Part shown: one piece after another, positions 32,095 to 41,848 of the stretch | Numbering within the stretch: position 1 is the first letter of the stretch | Layout of the letters: each line of letters starts with the position of its first letter | Source: Clostridia bacterium | GTDB taxonomy: Bacteria > Bacillota > Clostridia > Oscillospirales > CAG-272 | Assembly (NCBI GenBank): GCA_017522795.1 | Contig: JAFWXZ010000032.1 | Location: forward strand, 1-63,883 | DNA length: 63,883 nucleotides | Reading direction: 5' to 3' | The notes under the pieces: model-generated | Told to the model about the DNA's origin: nothing | Databases searched by the model: none | The model's input: the letters and a program-made list of their open reading frames with translations, nothing else | Program-made: the position numbers and the translations under genes

Positions 32095-33813
32095 ATGAAA
32101 AAGAACAATGCAAAGACTCAGAATAAAATCGTGATGCTATTAAAAGAAAAACTGTCGTCTCTTGCAGACAAGGATACTAAAATTAAAATCACTCTGTCAA
32201 TTATTCTGGGAGCATTAGTTGCGTTTATCGGCTTTTATTTCTTCCTTCCGCCGATCAATCTTATGTCAGAGCGCTTTTGGCTTTACATTCTTGCTATAAC
32301 GGTAGGAGCTTGTCTTCCATTCATCAGCATCAGTCCTGCACATATAAGTATAAAATCCAAGAACGGTGTAACCGTAAAAAGATATTCCGGACCTATAAGC
32401 AATAACAAATTCATTATTATCGCGATAGCCATTCCATTATCCGTGCTTATCCTTGGAAATATAATATCATCCACAGTATTTAACGCTAGAGCATACGCCG
32501 CGATAATCAAAGTGGAGGAGTCGGATTTTACAGAGGATCTGCCCGAAACTACCGAGATCACTAACATTGCACTTATGGACACCGAATCGGCAAAAATTCT
32601 GGGAAATAGAACGCTTGGCTCTTTGTCTCACGTGGTTTCTCAGTACACCGTAAGTGACATATATACCCAGATAAACTACAAGAATACTCCTAAAAAAGTA
32701 TCCAATCTTGAATATGACGGATTCTTCAAATGGATGGGCAACAGACAAAACGGTATTCCCGGTGTGGTAATCGTAGATCCTGTTAAAAGCAGTGCGGAAT
32801 ATATGGAGCTTAAAGCTCCTATGCAATATGCAGAAAGCGCATTTTTCGGTGACGATCTTATGCGAAAGGTGCGGTTTGATTACCCTACTAAAATTTTTGA
32901 CGAGGATGCAATAAGCTTTGAGCTTGACGATGACGGAAATCCCTATTACATTATTTCCTGCTTTGAACCGCAGGTAATGCTTTTTGGAGCGAAGGATGTT
33001 GTTGAGGTCATTATTTTTGATCCTACAAACGGTTCAAGTGAAATATACGGCATTGATGAAACTCCCGCGTGGGTGGATATAGTCTATGACGGATATTTAG
33101 CAAGCGAAAAGTATAATTGGCACGGTACACTTTCAGGTGGATTTATCAATAGCATTATCGGCAACGTTGGCTGCAAGATGGCAACCGATGACTTTGGATA
33201 CGTGGTTCTCGGCGATGACGTGTGGTATTTCACCGGTGTCACATCTGCTGTCTCCAACGACAAATCAAACATTGGTTTTATTCTCACCAATGCGCGTACC
33301 GGCGAATACAAGTTCTACCCTGTTATCGGCGCAGAGGAGCATTCAGCTATGGCTGCCGCCGAGGGAGAGGTTCAGGAAAAGGGATATATCGCATCCTTTC
33401 CTTCTCTTATCAACGTTTCAGGACAGCCTACATATATTATGGTGCTTAAAAACGATGCGGGCATAGTCGAGCTTTACGCGCTTGTTAACGTGGAAAACTA
33501 TAGTCTGGTTGCCACGGGAACAACACAGGCTGATGCTATGAGTGCATATAAGAAGCTGCTGAGGCAGAACGATATTGACATCGGTGACAGCTCAGAAAGC
33601 ATCCAGATAACCGTAGATGACGTAAGGATCGCTATGATATCCAACGTGGCAACAGCCTACATCACCGCAGATGACGGTTCTGTTTACAAGGGATATCTTG
33701 AAGCTGACGAAGCGCTTATCCTTATCCAAAAGGGCGATAAGCTTAGGATAAACTATCTTCCCACAGATATAGAGAAAATTTACAATATATCCTCTTGGGA
33801 ATTTGTTGAATAA
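32095..33813 (+). CDS. Conserved hypothetical membrane protein with large extracellular domain
   Basis: 3 N-terminal TMs; YFTGVTS, GAEEHSAMAAAEGEVQ; long ORF ending at terminator near 33829-33860. Confidence 0.75.
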   Translation: MKKNNAKTQNKIVMLLKEKLSSLADKDTKIKITLSIILGALVAFIGFYFFLPPINLMSERFWLYILAITVGACLPFISISPAHISIKSKNGVTVKRYSGPISNNKFIIIAIAIPLSVLILGNIISSTVFNARAYAAIIKVEESDFTEDLPETTEITNIALMDTESAKILGNRTLGSLSHVVSQYTVSDIYTQINYKNTPKKVSNLEYDGFFKWMGNRQNGIPGVVIVDPVKSSAEYMELKAPMQYAESAFFGDDLMRKVRFDYPTKIFDEDAISFELDDDGNPYYIISCFEPQVMLFGAKDVVEVIIFDPTNGSSEIYGIDETPAWVDIVYDGYLASEKYNWHGTLSGGFINSIIGNVGCKMATDDFGYVVLGDDVWYFTGVTSAVSNDKSNIGFILTNARTGEYKFYPVIGAEEHSAMAAAEGEVQEKGYIASFPSLINVSGQPTYIMVLKNDAGIVELYALVNVENYSLVATGTTQADAMSAYKKLLRQNDIDIGDSSESIQITVDDVRIAMISNVATAYITADDGSVYKGYLEADEALILIQKGDKLRINYLPTDIEKIYNISSWEFVE

Positions 33814-33893
33814 ATATGTATTAATAAAGAAGCCACGGCTCGTATTGAGCCGTGGCTTTCTGCTATTATTTTATCTGCTAGACAACTTGGAAT

Positions 33894-34229
33894 TTATTTA
33901 ACTTTAACTTCTATCCCTACCACACCATACTTTGCAATCTTTTCCACACTGTAATAAACAAGCATATCATTCGGATTCGCAATTTCCTCGTCTGAATAAC
34001 CAATCGATACTTTGTCATGATGCTTGTATAGTTCATCAAAACTACCATACTTAAACAAATTGGTAACTTCGCAATCTAATATTTCATCAGTGCTTGTATT
34101 GGTAAACTCAATACTATCCCCAATAGAAATAATTGAACGCTTTTCATCACACAATCTCATCTCAATCGTTTTGGTTTTATTTTTAACTTTTAGAAAAGAT
34201 TCATTCCAAAGATTCATTTTATGTATCAT
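33894..34229 (-). CDS. ASCH/PUA-like domain protein
   Basis: HKMNL..F..VKNKTKTIEMRLCDEKRSIISIGDSIEF..YGVVGIEV. Confidence 0.85.
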   Translation of the reverse strand: MIHKMNLWNESFLKVKNKTKTIEMRLCDEKRSIISIGDSIEFTNTSTDEILDCEVTNLFKYGSFDELYKHHDKVSIGYSDEEIANPNDMLVYYSVEKIAKYGVVGIEVKVK

Positions 34230-34280
34230 ATTAATACCCCGTCAAATTCAAGTTTATCGATTAGACACCTAACTAAGATA

Positions 34281-34342
34281 ATTATATTATAAAAATTCCC
34301 AAAAGTAAATAGGGCGGCTTGGTTTTTTACCTAAACCGCCCT
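34281..34342 (-). promoter_or_regulatory. Terminator hairpin fused to sigmaA promoter for the ASCH gene
   Basis: agggcggttt..ccgccct hairpin then TTTACT-17-TATAAT. Confidence 0.6.
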
Positions 34343-34380
34343 ATATGGTCTATAAACCTTTATAGTTTCACTATAGCGTA

Positions 34381-35800: not shown

Positions 35801-36652
35801 TTAGTTTTCCCCCTTCTTGAAGAGATTGCAGGTTGCTTCATAGGCGTGGCGCTCAAAGGATCTGTACGCGCCGCCGCGCATCATAGCCTCGTCGAAGTCC
35901 ACCTGATAGCCATTGAAATCGGGACCGTCAACGCAGGCAAATTTGGTCACGCGCTTACCGTCTACATTGAGAGTAAGTCGGCAGCCACCGCACATACCCG
36001 TGCCGTCTATCATAATGGGGTTCATAGACACATCGCAGGGGATGCCCGTGGGGCGCACTGCCTCAACAATGAATTTCATCATAATAAGCGGACCGATAGT
36101 GATAACCTTATCGAATTTGCGCTCGGCGAGCATCTCCTTCAGGGGCAGGGTCACGTTGCCCTGTCTGCCGTATGAGCCGTCATCGGTCATAACCACAAGC
36201 TCGTCCGAGCAGGCGCGGAATTCGTCCTCTAAAATCACGAGATCCGAGCTTCTGAAGCCGATAATTGAGGTCACACGAGCGCCCTTTTCTTTAAGAGCCT
36301 GCGCCACGGGAAGCGCGATAGCGCATCCAACGCCACCGCCAACGATGCATACGTTTTCAAGACCGTCCAGATGTGTGGGTACACCCAGAGGGCCTGCAAA
36401 GTCCTGAATGTACTCGCCCTTCTGCTTTTCGGAAAGCTTTTTCGTGGTAGCGCCGACTATCTGGAAGATAATTTTTACCGTTCCCGCATTTCTGTCGTAT
36501 CCCGCTACGGTAAGGGGGATTCTCTCTCCCTCTTCGTCCACACGGAGAATGATAAACTGTCCCGCCTGCGCCTTTTTCGCAACGAGGGGAGCTTCAATAT
36601 CCATCATTACGACGGTGGGATTAAGCTGTTTTTTGTAAACTATTCTATACAT
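35801..36652 (-). CDS. nfnA: NfnA / PyrK-like FAD/NAD-binding [2Fe-2S] subunit
   Basis: GERIPLT, GGGVGCA, DGTGMCGGCR..FACVDGPDF. Confidence 0.85.
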   Translation of the reverse strand: MYRIVYKKQLNPTVVMMDIEAPLVAKKAQAGQFIILRVDEEGERIPLTVAGYDRNAGTVKIIFQIVGATTKKLSEKQKGEYIQDFAGPLGVPTHLDGLENVCIVGGGVGCAIALPVAQALKEKGARVTSIIGFRSSDLVILEDEFRACSDELVVMTDDGSYGRQGNVTLPLKEMLAERKFDKVITIGPLIMMKFIVEAVRPTGIPCDVSMNPIMIDGTGMCGGCRLTLNVDGKRVTKFACVDGPDFNGYQVDFDEAMMRGGAYRSFERHAYEATCNLFKKGEN

Positions 36653-36831
36653 ATTGCCTCTTTCTCGCCCGTTTTTAGTCAGAACGCGCGATTTGTCAAA
36701 TAAAATACTCGTATGTTTTTTTACATCCTTTATATTATACAACGAAACTTTGTTTTTTGCAACAGGTTATAGGATTTTTATTCATTTAATTATAAAAATA
36801 AAAAAGCGGAACGAGTCCGCTTTTAGTTATC

Positions 36832-37332
36832 TTACAAATCCACAGAGGAATTGTTGTCCGAAAAGGATATGTGCGCTAGTGACAGCGCTCCTCGATAGAA
36901 GGTGACCGATGCCTTGACACCGTCGGGAAGTCTAAGCTCTATAACTCGCTCGTGGAAAAGTCTGTCAGCTTCATCGCCATTCAGATAAACGATACAACGA
37001 AGCATACCTCGATAGACGGTTATGTAATTCCCGTTTACCTCCGCGGTAGCAAATCTTGAAAAAGCAAGATCCAAAAGCAAAATAACGGGAGTCATCACAG
37101 CGCACCAAACGCCGATCACCACTCCAAAAACATAATCATTGTTATATGTGACGGTCTCGTAGGTAAAGATTCCGCTGCCGTGTACTGTCACCTCACGGCT
37201 CGCCTCTCTGAGAGAATGAAAAACGATAGCGATAGTCGCAAACACGACGATCAGGGCAGCCATAATTACTCTGCGGATTATTAAATTTTTTCTGAGGTTT
37301 TTCTCGAGTGCCTCAACCTTTTCTCTGTTCAT
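36832..37332 (-). CDS. Hypothetical membrane protein (distal cassette 5)
   Basis: 2 TMs; own promoter TTTACT-17-TATAAT at 37359-37387; terminator near 36800-36825. Confidence 0.7.
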   Translation of the reverse strand: MNREKVEALEKNLRKNLIIRRVIMAALIVVFATIAIVFHSLREASREVTVHGSGIFTYETVTYNNDYVFGVVIGVWCAVMTPVILLLDLAFSRFATAEVNGNYITVYRGMLRCIVYLNGDEADRLFHERVIELRLPDGVKASVTFYRGALSLAHISFSDNNSSVDL

Positions 37333-37428
37333 AACGGTTCCTTTGAAGTTTTTTATATATTATAACACGGCAAAAATAAAAAGTAAATATAGTTATAAAA
37401 ATTTACATAATTATAAAAGGATTATAAA

Positions 37429-37460
37429 AGGACGACTCGGATTTCTGAGCCGCCCTGTTT
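37429..37460 (-). repeat. Hairpin copy 4 of the cotJC-array element (no cotJC remnant)
   Basis: aaaacagggcggctcag-aaat-ccgagtcgtcct. Confidence 0.7.
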
Positions 37461-37473
37461 TATGATGTTTGGC

Positions 37474-37824
37474 TCAACTATACTTACTATGTAACACCTT
37501 TATAACATTAATTAAAGTATTATATACTTGATCACTGCTACTCAAAGGATAGGTCATTCTATCATGATTACAGGAATCATACGAAATGACAAATTTATCG
37601 GGATAAATCTCTACGTCAACGCGATACGCCTGATATTTACCATGTACTCTTATGTATTTGTCGTTATCAGAACAATTAGTACGGATAGATATGACTCTTA
37701 TTTTTTCACTTTTAAATTCGCTTTTTAATTTGCCGCTTAAATAATCGAGTAGTAAATAGTCAAAAGCATTTTTATTTTTGTCTACTTTTCTCAAATACGA
37801 TCTAATTTTGCTTTTTTCAAACAT
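37474..37824 (-). CDS. Hypothetical protein (cassette 4)
   Basis: AT-rich ORF with RBS AAGGAAG and own promoter. Confidence 0.7.
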   Translation of the reverse strand: MFEKSKIRSYLRKVDKNKNAFDYLLLDYLSGKLKSEFKSEKIRVISIRTNCSDNDKYIRVHGKYQAYRVDVEIYPDKFVISYDSCNHDRMTYPLSSSDQVYNTLINVIKVLHSKYS

Positions 37825-37855
37825 ATGAACTCTTCCTTAAATAATTGGTAAATTG

Positions 37856-37982
37856 ATTATATCATAGCGAAATGCAAAAGTCAAGGACGGCTCGATTTCT
37901 CGGGCCGCCCTGTTTTTATTTAGTTAGAATTTCTTGTCACGCAGGATGTTAATTGTTTCGTGAGTACAGTCAAACTGAAGTA
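37856..37982 (-). repeat. cotJC-3'-end repeat copy 3 (junction motif + HETINILRDKKF* + hairpin + promoter)
   Basis: tacttcagtttgactgta..ATCCTGCGTGACAAGAAATTCTAA..agggcggcccga-gaaa-tcgagccgtcct; TTGACT-17-TATAAT. Confidence 0.85.
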
Positions 37983-37988
37983 TTGCTA

Positions 37989-38393
37989 TCATCTGGCTTT
38001 CTTAAAAAGTGTTTTCTTTAGATAAGCTCGGATGCGTTTCCAATATATTATAACAAGTATTGAACCTATTTCTAATATGATTGCAATTATCAAAAGTAAA
38101 AATCCTATTGTATTTATGAAGAACATATGATAGGCTAGTATGAGAGAAATTCCCTGCACTCCTACCCACTCCATAAGTATACCGCCTGCTGAGAAATCAT
38201 TTAAATTAACATCTCTCATTATCTTATTTACACCTAATAATGCCATCGGAATAGACGCAATACTAGCAAATATGATTATGTTAATATCCTTAGATTCTAT
38301 ATACAAGAAAATGAATGCAATCCAACCATTGATTAACAAAAAAATCCATCCTAAAATTTTAAGAAGCAAGTTCGTGGTTAATCTTGTTTTCAT
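37989..38393 (-). CDS. Hypothetical 4-TM membrane protein (cassette 3)
   Basis: RBS GGAGGTG; hydrophobic; AT-rich. Confidence 0.75.
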   Translation of the reverse strand: MKTRLTTNLLLKILGWIFLLINGWIAFIFLYIESKDINIIIFASIASIPMALLGVNKIMRDVNLNDFSAGGILMEWVGVQGISLILAYHMFFINTIGFLLLIIAIILEIGSILVIIYWKRIRAYLKKTLFKKAR

Positions 38394-38418
38394 TTGTGAA
38401 CACCTCCCATTTTTCTAT

Positions 38419-38599
38419 ATTATACCACACCCCACATAAAAAAGCAAGGACGATTTGATCTCTCAAACCGCCCTGTTTTTTTCCTCATCCGTCATACTCG
38501 CAATGCTCGTATGCCTCCTTCCCCAACAGGGAAGGCTTATTTAGAATTTCTTGTCACTTAGGATATTCATAGCTTCGCCAATACAGTCAACATGAGGTG
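38419..38599 (-). repeat. cotJC-3'-end repeat copy 2 (GEAMNILSDKKF*) with inserted REP-like element
   Basis: cacctcatgttgactgta-tt-GGCGAAGCTATGAATATCCTAAGTGACAAGAAATTCTAA; REP at 38483-38538; TTGCTT-17-TATAAT. Confidence 0.85.
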
Positions 38600-38604
38600 T
38601 TTTA

Positions 38605-39105
38605 TCATTTCTTCACATTTACGTAAGTGATCTCTACACTACTACATCCAAAATGGTTTATCATTAATTTATACAGCTTCCCCTCTCTTGTCATTGGTTT
38701 AGGTTTTTTTCTAATTTTACCTATTATCCATTCTATAAAACTAAAAAGCTTAATCAAACAAAAAAGCGGAAAGAAAATAATTGTAAACAGTACTTCTATT
38801 ACTTTATCTCTCACCTTGGCTTTCGAATCTCTAGTATCTTCCGGACCAATATATTGAATCGTTCCAACGAGCTCTATTCTGTCATCGAACTCCCAAATAT
38901 CAGGAATAAACCAATATCCCCCACTATGTCCCGCACGTTCAATACCAAATCCTATTTTGTTATCAATAGTGCTTATTATATAGTTTTCAATTTGAAAATC
39001 CCCTTTAGGATTAATACTTATCCTTTTGTCAGGAGAACCGTAACGGCAGTGATTTATAAACATTTCTTTTGTTCCATTGTAACAAAATCTGTATTCTTTA
39101 TCCAT
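38605..39105 (-). CDS. Hypothetical protein with one TM (cassette 2)
   Basis: RBS AAGGAG; AT-rich ORF. Confidence 0.75.
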   Translation of the reverse strand: MDKEYRFCYNGTKEMFINHCRYGSPDKRISINPKGDFQIENYIISTIDNKIGFGIERAGHSGGYWFIPDIWEFDDRIELVGTIQYIGPEDTRDSKAKVRDKVIEVLFTIIFFPLFCLIKLFSFIEWIIGKIRKKPKPMTREGKLYKLMINHFGCSSVEITYVNVKK

Positions 39106-39130
39106 ATACTTTCTCCTTGTTTTTTCTTAT

Positions 39131-39259
39131 ATTATACCACACCAAAGCGAAAAAGTAAATAGGACGATTTGATTTCTCAAACCGCCCTGTTTTTATTTAG
39201 TTAGAATTTCTTGTCTCGCAAGATGTTCATTGCTTCGCCGATACAGTCAATATGAAGTA
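39131..39259 (-). repeat. cotJC-3'-end repeat copy 1 (GEAMNILRDKKF*)
   Basis: tacttcatattgactgta-tc-GGCGAAGCAATGAACATCTTGCGAGACAAGAAATTCTAA..agggcggtttga-gaaa-tcaaatcgtcct; TTTACT-17-TATAAT. Confidence 0.9.
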
Positions 39260-39276
39260 ATGTTGTTCGCTAAAAA

Positions 39277-39705
39277 TCATTTATACCTTTTATCAAATCT
39301 ATAAATTCTATATGAGTTTTGCTGTAGCCTTAAATAGATTCCTAATACAAGTTTTATTAATCCAAACAAAACCAACAAAATAGTGACTGCCTTGATTGAA
39401 AAAACGTTAGTTATTACTAAAATAGCATATTGAATAGGGAGAGTAATCAAAAATACAAGGTATAAATTATAAAAGAATTTATACTCCTTGGGATATACAG
39501 TATGTTCATTTATGTAATCAAAAGTGAATCGATCAAAAAATGACTTCGAACTATGTATCTTTTTAGCACTTTTCCTATTTCTTTTTGACAATAAGAAGCT
39601 AAAAAGCAGACCACGAAAATCCACGAATATGATTATATCTAAAAGAACTAAAAGTATATATAAAACGAGGATTATTTCATTCATTGATAAATTGCTCCTT
39701 TCCAT
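39277..39705 (-). CDS. Hypothetical 3-TM membrane protein (cassette 1)
   Basis: AT-rich hydrophobic ORF; promoter at 39720-39748. Confidence 0.75.
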   Translation of the reverse strand: MERSNLSMNEIILVLYILLVLLDIIIFVDFRGLLFSFLLSKRNRKSAKKIHSSKSFFDRFTFDYINEHTVYPKEYKFFYNLYLVFLITLPIQYAILVITNVFSIKAVTILLVLFGLIKLVLGIYLRLQQNSYRIYRFDKRYK

Positions 39706-39719
39706 TCATTTTCAATTAT

Positions 39720-39780
39720 ATTATACCACACCATAACGAAAAAGTAAAGAGCGATTTGATTTCTCAAACCGCCCTGTTTT
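39720..39780 (-). terminator. cotJC terminator hairpin whose T-tract doubles as the -35 of the next promoter
   Basis: agggcggtttga-gaaa-tcaaatcgctct; TTTACT-17-TATAAT. Confidence 0.75.
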
Positions 39781-39787
39781 TATTTAG

Positions 39788-40345
39788 TTAGAAATTCTTA
39801 TCTCTCAGGATGTTCATCGCTTCTCCGAAGCGCTGGAAGTGGACGATCTCGCGCTGGCGGAGAAATTTGATGGCGTCGTTGACGTCGGGATCATCGGAGA
39901 GGCGGAGAATGTTATCGTACATTGCTCTTGCCTTCTGCTCTGCCGCAAGGTCCTCGTGGATCGAGGCGAGGGCGTCCTCCTTAGAGGCTATAGATGCCGC
40001 ATTAAAGGGCATTCCCGATGCGGATGCGGGGAATATGCCTGCGCCGTGGTCGACGTAATACTTATCAAATCCGCCTGCGATAATCTCGTCGGGAGTGAGA
40101 TTTCGTGTAAGCTGATAAACAATGCTGGCTACCATCTCCTGATGGCCCATTTCTTCTGTTCCGACATCGGTCAGGATGCCCACTACTTTTCCGTCGGGCA
40201 TAGTGTAGCGCTGGTTAAGATAGCGCATTGCCGCGCCCGTTTCACCGTCGGGACCGCCGAGTGCAGTAATTATAATGCTCGCAAGACGAGGATTAGGACG
40301 CTCGATCTTTACGGGATGCTGAAGCTGCTTCTGATATATCCACAT
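39788..40345 (-). CDS. cotJC: Manganese catalase-family spore coat protein CotJC
   Basis: MWIYQKQLQHPVKI, LGGPDGE, RYLNQR, DVGTEEMGH, EDLAAEQKAR, REIVHFQRFGEA. Confidence 0.95.
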   Translation of the reverse strand: MWIYQKQLQHPVKIERPNPRLASIIITALGGPDGETGAAMRYLNQRYTMPDGKVVGILTDVGTEEMGHQEMVASIVYQLTRNLTPDEIIAGGFDKYYVDHGAGIFPASASGMPFNAASIASKEDALASIHEDLAAEQKARAMYDNILRLSDDPDVNDAIKFLRQREIVHFQRFGEAMNILRDKNF

Positions 40346-40346
40346 A

Positions 40347-40799
40347 CTATCTGTCCCCCTCTCTCATAAAGTCGCCTGCCTGCTGCCAGGGCCAGGGGCC
40401 GTCTACCCAATGCCACTGATCGGTGCTGACGTTGCCCATAGCGGTCAGAGGTCCTACGGTGTTCTCGTACTCCTCGGTGAGCCTTTTCAGCTCCTCGACG
40501 GTCTGATAATAGTAATCAAGCGCCGTGCGGCATCTGGGGTGGGTATCAAGATAAAGCTCAAGCTCTACCTTTACGAAGCAGAGCGCACGGATCTGCTCGG
40601 CAAGACTGCCCGAAAGAGCCGCGCCGTTTGCATTTCTGCCACCTCTGCCGTTTCCATTCGGGGCGGTATAGCCGCCGTTCATATTGGTGCCGTTATAGTT
40701 GGTACCGTTCATGTCGGTGCGACCGCCTGTGCCGTTGTTTGTAACACCGCCAACGCGACCGTTCATATTGTTCATACCATTATTTCTCGCTCTATTCAC
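40347..40799 (-). CDS. cotJB: Spore coat protein CotJB with Gly/Asn-rich N-terminal extension
   Basis: F..VELELYLDTHP..ALDYY..YE..VGPL..WHWVDGPWPWQ; GTG start overlaps cotJA stop. Confidence 0.88.
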   Translation of the reverse strand: MNRARNNGMNNMNGRVGGVTNNGTGGRTDMNGTNYNGTNMNGGYTAPNGNGRGGRNANGAALSGSLAEQIRALCFVKVELELYLDTHPRCRTALDYYYQTVEELKRLTEEYENTVGPLTAMGNVSTDQWHWVDGPWPWQQAGDFMREGDR

Positions 40800-41130
40800 G
40801 ACCGTACACCTCCATAGGCTTATACAGCTCCTCAAAGAGCGTGCCGTGCCTTAACGCATCGTTTGCCGAATAGAGCATACGAAAGACCTGGTCGGGAGCG
40901 TAGACGTAGGCGAGAGGCATTCTGTCAAGGCAGGTTCCTGTGCCGCCGCAGGCGTGGTTTCCCTGAACACCGCCGACAGTGCCGTTATTGCCACCGCAGC
41001 CGCCCATACCGTTGTTTCCTCCGCAACCGTTGCCACAGCCGTTTCCGCAACCGCCGTCGCCCGTGTTGCCGCCCATATCGGTCACGCCGCCAACAGAGCC
41101 GTTCGGATATCCGTTTTCATTTTTATCCAT
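40792..41130 (-). CDS. cotJA: Spore coat protein CotJA with Gly/Cys/Asn-rich N-terminal extension
   Basis: PLAYVYAPDQ..Y...ALRHGTLFEELYKP. Confidence 0.88.
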   Translation of the reverse strand: MDKNENGYPNGSVGGVTDMGGNTGDGGCGNGCGNGCGGNNGMGGCGGNNGTVGGVQGNHACGGTGTCLDRMPLAYVYAPDQVFRMLYSANDALRHGTLFEELYKPMEVYGRE

Positions 41131-41212
41131 TTTTTACTGTTTTCCTTGTTGTTTTTGCGGTCAATTATTAAACAAACCGCTATAAGCATTATACGGTTTT
41201 CGCCAAAATTTG

Positions 41213-41848
41213 CTACTCTGAGATACCCCGCCGCATAAGGCTGAATGAGAGAAAAAGGATAATTGAAAACACGGAAAAACCGCATAGGAGAATTGCCCTG
41301 CCTGTCAGAACGGAGTTTGCGCCAAGCAAAGCAAAAACCGAGTACTGCAGATTGAAAACGGACATAAGCGAGGTGGACAAAGAGATGCTGCGCGCGGTGA
41401 AATAAAGGTGATTCTCACCGTCGCGGTGGCGGCGCAGGTCCATGAACGATCGGGTGACCGAATATACGGTAAACGCGAGAAAGCCAAGCAAGATCAGCCC
41501 CGAATAGCTGGCGTAGCTACCGCGGCGAATGGAATACAGCATTATAGAGGCAGATGCAAGGTCGAGAAGCAGAAGCAAAATACCTACGCGAAGGCAGATA
41601 CGCCGTCCGTTTGCTTCATCCGCGCGGGTGCGTCCTACAGTGAGCAGATATAGTCTGATGATTATCAGCATAAGGTGATAAACCGTCAGTGTTGCAGACC
41701 AGATGCTGTGATAGAGGATAGCTGATGCGGCATTGGTGGCAATGTATAGGAAATTCATAAAAGAACCGCCGAGAAGAACGATAATGATTCTGGCAGTAGG
41801 ATTTTCTATGAAAAGATTAAAACAACTCAATAATTTATCTTTTTTCAT
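41213..41848 (-). CDS. Hypothetical multi-pass membrane protein
   Basis: About 6 TM segments. Confidence 0.65.
   Translation of the reverse strand: MKKDKLLSCFNLFIENPTARIIIVLLGGSFMNFLYIATNAASAILYHSIWSATLTVYHLMLIIIRLYLLTVGRTRADEANGRRICLRVGILLLLLDLASASIMLYSIRRGSYASYSGLILLGFLAFTVYSVTRSFMDLRRHRDGENHLYFTARSISLSTSLMSVFNLQYSVFALLGANSVLTGRAILLCGFSVFSIILFLSFSLMRRGISE

Follow-up and report, generated by a model that had tools for sequence, protein, structure and literature searches.

A motif ahead of displaced cotJC gene ends in ruminant-gut Clostridia is probably the half-site of a large serine recombinase

Elements of the staphylococcal cassette chromosome (SCC, including SCCmec) lie at rlmH (orfX) and are moved by the large serine recombinases (LSRs) CcrAB or CcrC, and some of them, the pseudo-SCC elements, have no recombinase of their own. 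As described in sections of a paper on these elements, integration takes place at the 3′ end of rlmH, each att site pairs two inverted, degenerate half-sites about a GA at its centre, and composites in tandem, with att sites inside them, are common (PMC13739063). According to excerpts of a second paper, the ssrA islands of Dehalococcoides follow one another downstream of this single gene and are bounded by direct repeats of the ssrA end, and a conserved 15-bp motif foreign to ssrA directly precedes each repeat; they involve a CcrB-like serine recombinase, DsiB, some are without an integration module, and an accretion of cis-mobilizable elements was proposed (PMC3146451). Among sporulation genes, several papers describe the intervening elements skin in sigK, SPbeta in spsM, and gin in gerE (PMC5595907, PMC5499854, PMC5025042), and a passage of a preprint names cotJC as a further integration target (bioRxiv 10.1101/2021.11.22.469490, citing Abe et al. 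2013). Here we describe an array of small cassettes behind the spore-coat gene cotJC in a stretch of 63,883 nucleotides from a Clostridia bacterium (assembly GCA_017522795.1, contig JAFWXZ010000032.1, positions 1 to 63,883; hereafter the window), in which an 18-bp motif stands ahead of each of three displaced cotJC ends. In the literature on cotJC with cassettes or serine recombinases, no description of such arrays was found among titles, the beginnings of abstracts, and some cotJC passages.

The motif, TACTTCA-nnn-TGACTGTA, was found in three copies in the window, all on the minus strand: TACTTCATATTGACTGTA (39259-39242), CACCTCATGTTGACTGTA (38599-38582), and TACTTCAGTTTGACTGTA (37982-37965). 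An earlier note, made from the letters of this DNA alone, had placed the copies at these coordinates, and reading the minus strand bore this out. The same holds for its claims that each copy ends 2 nt ahead of the codon at the Gly position of a cotJC 3′-end copy (CAC in the third), that each lies within about 20 bp of a cassette stop codon (17, 5, and 6 nt past the stops of the open reading frames (ORFs) of cassettes 1, 2, and 3, respectively), and that the native cotJC differs at the equivalent place, where it reads cacttccagcgcttc. The final 12-13 codons of cotJC were repeated after every motif. When up to two mismatches were allowed, the pattern YACYTCANNNTGACTGTA had three matches in the window against an expectation of 0.20, and three were reached in none of 100 shuffles. 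When up to one mismatch was allowed, the complete assembly of 1,652,110 bases also yielded three matches, all in the cotJC array, and none for the pattern read backwards as a control. In each of five whole array-bearing metagenome-assembled genomes (MAGs), there were two to four copies of the motif, none of them outside the cotJC array, and the control pattern had no match.

A scan for the motif together with the next ten bases identified 27 other loci, comprising 21 stretches in species-representative genomes and six metagenome contigs. The array loci were in MAGs labelled Clostridia, Eubacteriales, and Oscillospiraceae, several of them also labelled yak or roe deer. Across these loci and the window, 28 in total, the consensus TACTTCATGTTGACTGTA was matched with up to four mismatches at 56 sites on the cotJC strand and at one on the other. 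All 34 of the variant sites listed continued with TTGGC, TTGCC, CCCAC, or a similar sequence and then with GAAGCnATG. Where an upstream ORF of at least 55 amino acids could be called (48 sites), the motif started between -13 and +27 nt from the ORF stop in 44. The position of the motif is thus biased genome-wide, as the earlier note had proposed to check. The 53 flanking ORFs fell into 37 families, and few had Pfam matches: DMP19-like (two), Abi_alpha, Nmad3, SF0329, GyrI-like/Cass2 with an AraC helix-turn-helix (HTH), HTH_3, and several DUFs. The window array includes three internal junctions and other arrays up to four. In a non-redundant set of 51 sites, conservation set in sharply at position -2 and ran to +27, with a codon-like pattern beyond, where the search had selected for the 18 motif positions but left the flanks (-2/-1 and +18 to +27) free; the bases C, G, and A at +22 to +24 were invariant in all 51. 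Two other searches reached less far. BLAST of one repeat unit (39115-39265) against 200 family genomes returned, beyond the window copies, only matches to generic promoter and terminator parts, and a pattern of the motif plus the cotJC end, run on 400 family genomes, recovered only the window and two genomes of the genus g93, plus chance-like matches.

The motif is best explained, and quite likely so, as the outer 18 bases of a 23-base P-type half-site belonging to a clade of LSRs that would integrate into the last codons of cotJC. Since an element half-site stands to the left and cotJC from the GA of its Gly-Glu codons to the right, each motif with its displaced cotJC end would form an attR-type junction, that is, P fused to B′. 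LSR genes were indeed found abutting the motif, in two arrays and in at least five other genomes. A variant of the motif in the metagenome contig L097 adjoins an ORF of 492 amino acids with Resolvase, Recombinase, and Zn_ribbon_recom domains, and in L086 a C-terminus homologous to this LSR abuts another variant; in both, the LSR element lies upstream of the array. Homologues with E <= 1e-80 were present in 16 of 400 family genomes. Among 18 LSR matches inspected, seven (L113, L114, L115, L116, L117, L125, and L127) had a half-site-like sequence and a cotJC 3′ end after the stop codon, L128 was doubtful, and the other ten were in other contexts. The half-site started 0 nt past the LSR stop in L114, 10 nt in L113, and 20-35 nt in the remaining five, and the cotJC ends that followed were mostly of a longer C-terminal type. 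The earlier note had named a host recombinase of the XerC/D kind as the candidate enzyme; the likely enzyme here is an LSR.

The far ends of four such elements (in genomes G125, G378, G370, and G044) provided the other half of the site. Each was fused to a truncated cotJC at ...TTCGGCGA/A, where the slash marks the joint: the gene runs up to ...TTC-GGC-GA/A, and the element DNA that follows is an inverted copy of the half-site (P′). When the P arm was compared with the reverse complement of P′, the two were symmetric about the GA at 17 of 23 positions in G125, 19 of 23 in G378, 13 of 23 in G370, and 17 of 23 in G044. The LSR element truncates cotJC in all four genomes; in G378, for example, the protein ends ...FGE-TKQSG. 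From P and the inverted P′ about GA, we infer a free attP of two 23-base half-sites around the GA, about 48 bp in length. The symmetry is centred on the GA of the Gly-Glu codons, which lies 5 nt beyond the motif, and this dinucleotide is common to 51 of 51 junctions, to the native cotJC (GGA or GGC, then GAA), and to the four attL sites; from this symmetry, cleavage is predicted to fall exactly there. The window half-sites agreed with the P arm of G125 at 19, 18, and 16 of 23 positions, and random 23-mers of the window agreed with the inverted P′ arms of the four elements at 7.4 on average.

These comparisons qualify two further claims of the earlier note. It had described the motif as an imperfect inverted repeat, and the small TCA-nnn-TGA symmetry is real, but the predicted point of exchange lies elsewhere, at the GA 5 nt downstream. 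Likewise, the 3-bp core is variable as stated (TGT, TAT, CCC, CGT, GTT, CTC, and TTT were seen), but it is a spacer inside one half-site and not a crossover. Its broader proposal, that the motif is an attachment site on the cassette side and that the mechanism is site-specific and not random duplication, is supported, with the motif biased in position as above and encoded by no donor allele (see below).

A related architecture was observed among phage-borne relatives of the LSR, which are 48-74% identical to it and were collected at 80 loci, 68 of which extend 80 nt or more past the stop. Immediately behind the LSR stop, these relatives have 6-7 outer bases, then 2-3 that vary, then TGATTG, and after another seven bases the centre. 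TGA[TC]TG occurred within 35 nt of the stop in 30 of the 68, and a palindrome of at least 13/20 in 24 of the 68, compared with 4.5% of random windows from the same loci. In the cotJC elements, the att-site geometry found was 23-2-23 with the LSR adjoining. When the LSR was compared with NCBIfam, the closest names were CcrC, XisF, and CcrB; the scores were 123 bits for CcrC, 112-114 for CcrB, 76-109 for CcrA, and 121-139 for XisF, against cut-offs of 900, 900, 700, and 375, respectively. The cotJC-type LSR is not a Ccr or XisF equivalog.

In the mechanism proposed here, the simplest one and one that needs no more than canonical LSR reactions, strand exchange would take place at the GA of the Gly-Glu codons (GGC/GA/A), 5 nt downstream of the motif. 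An LSR element would integrate at the attB of cotJC, upstream of older attR junctions, and its excision through a distal attR would carry off the intervening cassettes. In a new host, excision through the proximal attR would leave these cassettes behind, cotJC would then be completed by the cassette-borne cotJC end, and the resident and older ends would be pushed downstream. Since the restored gene end would be a usable attB again, the stack could grow. Because the arrays have no P′ half-sites, the recombinase-bearing part of the cassette carrier would be gone from them; cotJC is whole. The route by which so small cassettes would form and move is one that we infer from the arrays. Several observations fit the scheme: the functional cotJC end of L081 is of the type that usually accompanies cassettes and its single displaced end differs, the LSR elements of L097 and L086 are upstream of the arrays, and the C-terminus of CotJC is short in array-bearing genomes and long in most cassette-free relatives of the same genus. 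The short end may itself have arrived with the cassettes. The two C-terminal types (in the window at 39788-39830, and in related loci) read ...FGEAM(N/E)IL.DKKF or ...FGEAMRSLTE, each followed by the stop codon (short), and ...FG(D/E)ALR...NFYA.NPSFD... (long).

A number of points weigh against this interpretation, which rests throughout on the comparison of sequences. A cognate LSR was not found in the window assembly (78% complete), where four LSR genes are only 26-32% identical to it over the N-terminal part, nor in five other array-bearing MAGs, where the one weak match was 40% identical over residues 6-233. This non-detection bears on present activity and not on the origin of the site. 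The four LSR genes of the window genome are all at contig starts (G000 contigs C17, 4-486 and 1632-2153; C21, 173-1501; C22, 173-1498). In the array-bearing G435, only about 2 kb of the LSR element upstream of its recombinase gene is on the contig, and its left end (attL) lies beyond. A scan of the arrays for P′ half-sites with up to five mismatches returned six chance-like matches, all inside ORFs and none beside a GA. With arrays of this kind, a mini-cassette circle would carry a P-B′ site, and we know of no classical LSR that recombines such a site with attB. Viral contigs included no match to the half-site plus GSCGA, and no circular or phage form with a cassette was found among them. A cassette found in two genomes is flanked on both of its sides by cotJC ends that differ between them, and the stretch in common begins 4-7 nt ahead of the hairpin that precedes the cassette, not at the GA; some of the shuffling therefore looks like homologous exchange in the hairpin-promoter scaffold, and such exchange in this scaffold of 70-80 bp probably contributes. 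Additionally, cassettes 4 and 5 of the window are without a half-site, and in G378 and L085 both cotJC ends around a cassette are of the same host type, which the scheme does not predict. Finally, that 37 unrelated ORF families came to lie 0-27 nt upstream of a half-site is unexplained by any scheme.

Two further ideas were considered and set aside. The A-rich stretch with CAGGG before each hairpin was compared with P′ as a decayed arm, and the agreement, about 11 of 22 positions by eye, was unconvincing. The motif as the start of a small ORF (ATG/TTG-ACT-GTA...) lacks both a ribosome-binding site and a conserved ATG.

Contigs from four gut-metagenome runs were compared with the window. In runs X5, X8, and X9, contigs matched parts of cassettes 2-4 without differences. 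The contig that covers 39040-39193 departs from the window sequence just upstream of the cassette-2 hairpin (loose ends 39184/39193), which suggests strains with a different cotJC-proximal cassette. Contigs of X5 and X8 had no cover over 39261-39683, in the cassette-1 ORF, which is not evidence of its absence. Two contig joints (38591>39739 and 39780>39131) had sides of only 24-36 letters inside repeats and were treated as unreliable.

One cassette was found outside cotJC. In the genus g93, a homologue of the cassette-2 ORF, with the same hairpin, promoter, and motif, is located inside a copy of a repeat of about 380 bp that resembles a miniature inverted-repeat transposable element (MITE), and the corresponding empty chromosomal site is present in G403. 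The left 110 nt of this cassette read as a long-type cotJC end. Its two joints to the repeat coincide in position within sequences resembling the cotJC core: TTYGCC followed by GA on the left, and the motif, TTGGC, GA or AA, and AGCGAAGAATATC on the right, where typical repeat copies read TTTGCG(A)AAGCAAAGAATATC. The position of the cassette looks like the use of a pseudo-site and would be hard to account for by homologous exchange; the accompanying loss of about 143 bp of the repeat is not explained by pseudo-site use. The crossover dinucleotide of the right junction (L083, L084, and L076) is AA in G315 and GA in G218 and G403, and typical MITE copies have AA; the AA of G315 could be a simple mutation or the trace of an exchange at a mismatched pseudo-site. 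The repeat itself, of about 370-390 bp (L049 4833-5731; typical copies L063-L071), had 1-25 BLAST matches per g93 genome, with at least 10 in 10 of the 16 genomes searched, and it sits in the loops of terminator hairpins. Its interior matches the Rfam Gut-1 RNA (RF01706; E 1.7e-8), scoring 50.7 bits where the gathering score is 50, and Gut-1 may be part of a mobile element.

A stronger form of the LSR interpretation would make the cotJC array a working, integron-like platform for gene capture, in which an LSR, supplied in trans by transient elements, would excise cassettes and, after their exchange between species, insert them again at the restored attB. We regard this as a tentative possibility and a rather doubtful one. 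It would require that the LSR act on P-B′ sites or that cassettes be shuttled by an alternative choice of attR, and it would allow an occasional landing at look-alike sites, such as the Gut-1-bearing MITE of another genus. If it were true, anaerobic gut Firmicutes would have a cassette system parallel to integrons, which are, to our knowledge, rare in Clostridia of this kind. Were the cassettes still mobile, ruminant-gut Clostridia could gather small accessory genes and pass them on in an integron-like manner; Abi_alpha, DMP19-like, and Nmad3 proteins are among the cargo, along with many unknown ones. Should the junctions be no more than scars, the array would be a case of ordinary tandem accretion, as for SCC and the ssrA islands.

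Among the alternatives to an LSR half-site, the one that survives best, although unlikely, is a passive relic, in which a single ancestral LSR integration was followed by growth and spread of the array only through duplication and homologous exchange in its repeats, leaving the motif without a present function. It would accommodate the shared cassette segments that begin at the hairpin instead of the GA, the flanking cotJC ends that do not travel with the ORF, the contigs of other samples that match cassettes 2-4 and diverge just upstream of the cassette-2 hairpin (39184/39193), and the lack of a cognate LSR among six array-bearing genomes. However, a relic should decay like its surroundings, and the half-site is near-invariant in the 51 sites, a set in which the search selected for the 18 motif positions but not for the flanks; in the cotJC end next to it, by contrast, third-codon-like positions are free to vary. 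The 37 unrelated ORF families, each abutting the half-site within a few nucleotides, are likewise poorly accommodated, as are the LSR genes, which hold the same position as cargo ORFs. The cassette site outside cotJC offers only about 16/20 bases of similarity, too little for homologous exchange.

It is very improbable that the motif is coding sequence of a diverged donor allele of cotJC, duplicated along with the gene end. In the cotJC frame, the motif reads L-H-V/I-D-C-I-G, in which the His and Gly of the native V-H-F-Q-R-F-G are kept and the hydrophobic residues align. However, each of the 25 native alleles whose 3′ end could be read has H-F/Y-Q-R-F at this place, and none of them encodes the motif, which answers the donor-allele check raised by the earlier note. 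These alleles included 11 of 11 beside arrays, 10 of 11 at same-genus loci (the eleventh had no match to the search pattern), two in genus g93, and two at element junctions (G370 and G044); the native alleles of G125 and G378 were also read at element junctions. Homology between native and displaced ends starts only at GGC-GAA-GC, and the similarity among sites ends abruptly at -2, where the unrelated ORF ends begin. In addition, the motif recurs in inverted orientation in the non-coding ends of elements, and its architecture is related to that of phage attP sites.

Equally little weight is given to a site for a tyrosine recombinase, be it Xer/dif-like, as in pdif modules and integrative mobile elements exploiting Xer recombination (IMEX), or an integron attC. 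The cassettes are without a recombinase of their own, as in pdif modules and integron cassettes, the array has an integron-like look, and the motif includes a small internal dyad; yet every recombinase gene found abutting the motif was of the serine type (no search for tyrosine recombinase or intI genes was made), the dyad partner and the 23-2-23 spacing fit an LSR attP and not the 11-6-11 of dif or a folded attC, and the cassettes bear their own promoters. Last, a regulatory element, either the operator of a dimeric DNA-binding protein or an RNA element in the 3′ untranslated region of cassette transcripts, is hardly credible: the short 7-3-8 dyad is operator-like and lies within the transcribed 3′ region upstream of a terminator, but no Rfam family was matched in 36400-41300 at E <= 0.01, a small hairpin would have only 3+3 pairs, and regulation would not account for a motif that is joined to cotJC ends, recurs inverted where elements end, and has LSR genes beside it.

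The window itself holds a tandem stack of at least three junctions that separate small, AT-rich, recombinase-less, promoter-bearing single-gene cassettes. The features of the stack are collected in the table, which also gives exact coordinates for the half-sites and the predicted crossover. The centre of the predicted attB-like site was placed from the attL/attR pairs of other genomes and the invariant C-G-A of 51/51 sites. The stretch of five ORFs has a G+C content of about 30%, compared with about 53% in the flanks, and a terminator-like hairpin and an extended -10 promoter precede each ORF. A scan identified eight terminator-like sites where 1.9 were expected, and the hairpin stems show compensatory changes among copies, with G-T pairs that fit the sense strand only. 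No recombinase was found among the five ORFs by family searches, nor did they match anything in Pfam or PADLOC; PHROGs gave one weak match (E 0.0055, cassette 1). A homologue of cassette 4 in L094 has the same arrangement as in the window.

Features of the cotJC region and its cassette array (positions in the window)
Feature	Position	Strand	Remarks
cotJC, intact, 185 amino acids	39788-40345	-	Pfam Mn_catalase, E 3.7e-51
cotJB	40347-40835	-	Pfam CotJB, E 6.7e-27
cotJA	40792-41130	-	Pfam CotJA, E 5.4e-10
Predicted attB-like site in cotJC (B and B′)	39803-39842	-	centre GA 39823-39822 (Gly-Glu codons GGA/GA/A); putative extent about 40 bp
P-type half-site 1 (predicted)	39237-39259	-	motif 39242-39259 + TCGGC; 19/23 vs P arm of G125 recombinase element
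Continuation of half-site 1	39236-39201	-	GA 39236-39235, displaced cotJC end 1 to TAA 39203-39201; attR-type junction
P-type half-site 2 (predicted)	38577-38599	-	motif 38582-38599 + TTGGC; 18/23 vs G125 P arm
Continuation of half-site 2	38576-38541	-	GA 38576-38575, displaced cotJC end 2 to TAA 38543-38541
P-type half-site 3 (predicted)	37960-37982	-	motif 37965-37982 + CTCAC; 16/23 vs G125 P arm
Continuation of half-site 3	37959-37924	-	GA 37959-37958, most decayed displaced cotJC end, to TAA 37926-37924
Cassette 1 ORF, 142 amino acids	39277-39705	-	hydrophobic, no family
Cassette 2 ORF, 166 amino acids	38605-39105	-	homologues with same flanks in other genomes, including one copy outside cotJC
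Cassette 3 ORF, 134 amino acids	37989-38393	-	hydrophobic, no family
Cassette 4 ORF, 116 amino acids	37474-37824	-	own promoter, hairpin after; without motif or cotJC end
Cassette 5 ORF, 166 amino acids	36832-37332	-	hydrophobic; ordinary terminator 36824-36802 after; without motif
Terminator hairpin after cotJC	39748-39775	-	further copies 39161-39188, 38447-38474, 37883-37916, 37429-37456
Extended -10 promoter (TGnTATAAT) of cassette 1	39720-39748	-	equivalents 39131-39159, 38419-38427 (-10 only), 37856-37884, 37359-37387

Elsewhere in the window, a second islet of low G+C content (30-34%) occupies 33750-34350, just past a glutamate-synthase-like operon, and includes an ORF of 111 amino acids (33894-34229, minus strand). 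In other genomes, cotJC is also split at about residue 133-138 (G093:C54/C3, G320:C63, G403:C83, G421, and G422). In L073 (oriented, 11-456), the C-terminus of a recombinase with DUF4368 lies directly ahead of cotJC residues 133-183, which marks a second insertion point.

The repetition of spore-coat gene ends, split by small foreign genes, can be read as the footprint of serine-recombinase traffic at one gene end. The LSR clade comes with a predicted attP (about 48 bp) and attB (about 40 bp), and pairs of recombinases and sites are raw material for genome-engineering tools.

Of the known systems, SCC composites at rlmH and the Dehalococcoides ssrA islands come nearest to the cotJC arrays. Compared with SCC elements, the cotJC arrays share the 3′ end of a conserved gene as the target, with the gene left intact, half-sites around a GA, tandem units with internal att sites, and units without a recombinase. 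In contrast, the target here is cotJC in ruminant-gut Clostridia, and the units are of about 0.6-0.9 kb with one ORF, their own promoter, and a conserved terminator. The internal junctions of the arrays are without a second element-side half-site, the left side of a unit being cotJC-type (B′) sequence, and the LSR, at 111-138 bits against cut-offs of 375-900, is no Ccr or XisF equivalog. In Dehalococcoides, the 15-bp motif of the ssrA islands is the direct counterpart of the cotJC motif; however, those islands, whose target is an RNA gene, are kilobases or even tens of kilobases in length, whereas the cotJC units are single-gene cassettes and the duplicated end, of about 40-80 bp or more, is coding. 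The likeness to skin, SPbeta, and gin lies in LSR-bearing insertions in mother-cell sporulation genes, as in the four genomes where LSR elements truncate cotJC. The window cotJC, in contrast, is intact and uninterrupted and is followed by an attR-type stack with cargo, and sporulation-specific excision is neither needed nor implied.

Integrons, and clusters of attC sites lacking integron-integrases (CALIN), resemble the arrays in the ordered series of small, mostly single-gene, unrelated accessory cassettes, in a conserved site just past the stop codon, and in an entry apparently at one end. They differ in that a serine recombinase is implicated here, that the site is a half-palindrome without a local partner and not a folded attC, and that each cassette has its own promoter and terminator with no common Pc; there is no adjacent integrase, and no search aimed at intI was made. 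The cotJC array is of a known kind, a tandem accretion at an LSR site in a gene 3′ end, and it differs in the cotJC target, the host group, the tiny single-gene units bearing a promoter and a terminator, and the lack of a second element-side half-site at the internal junctions.

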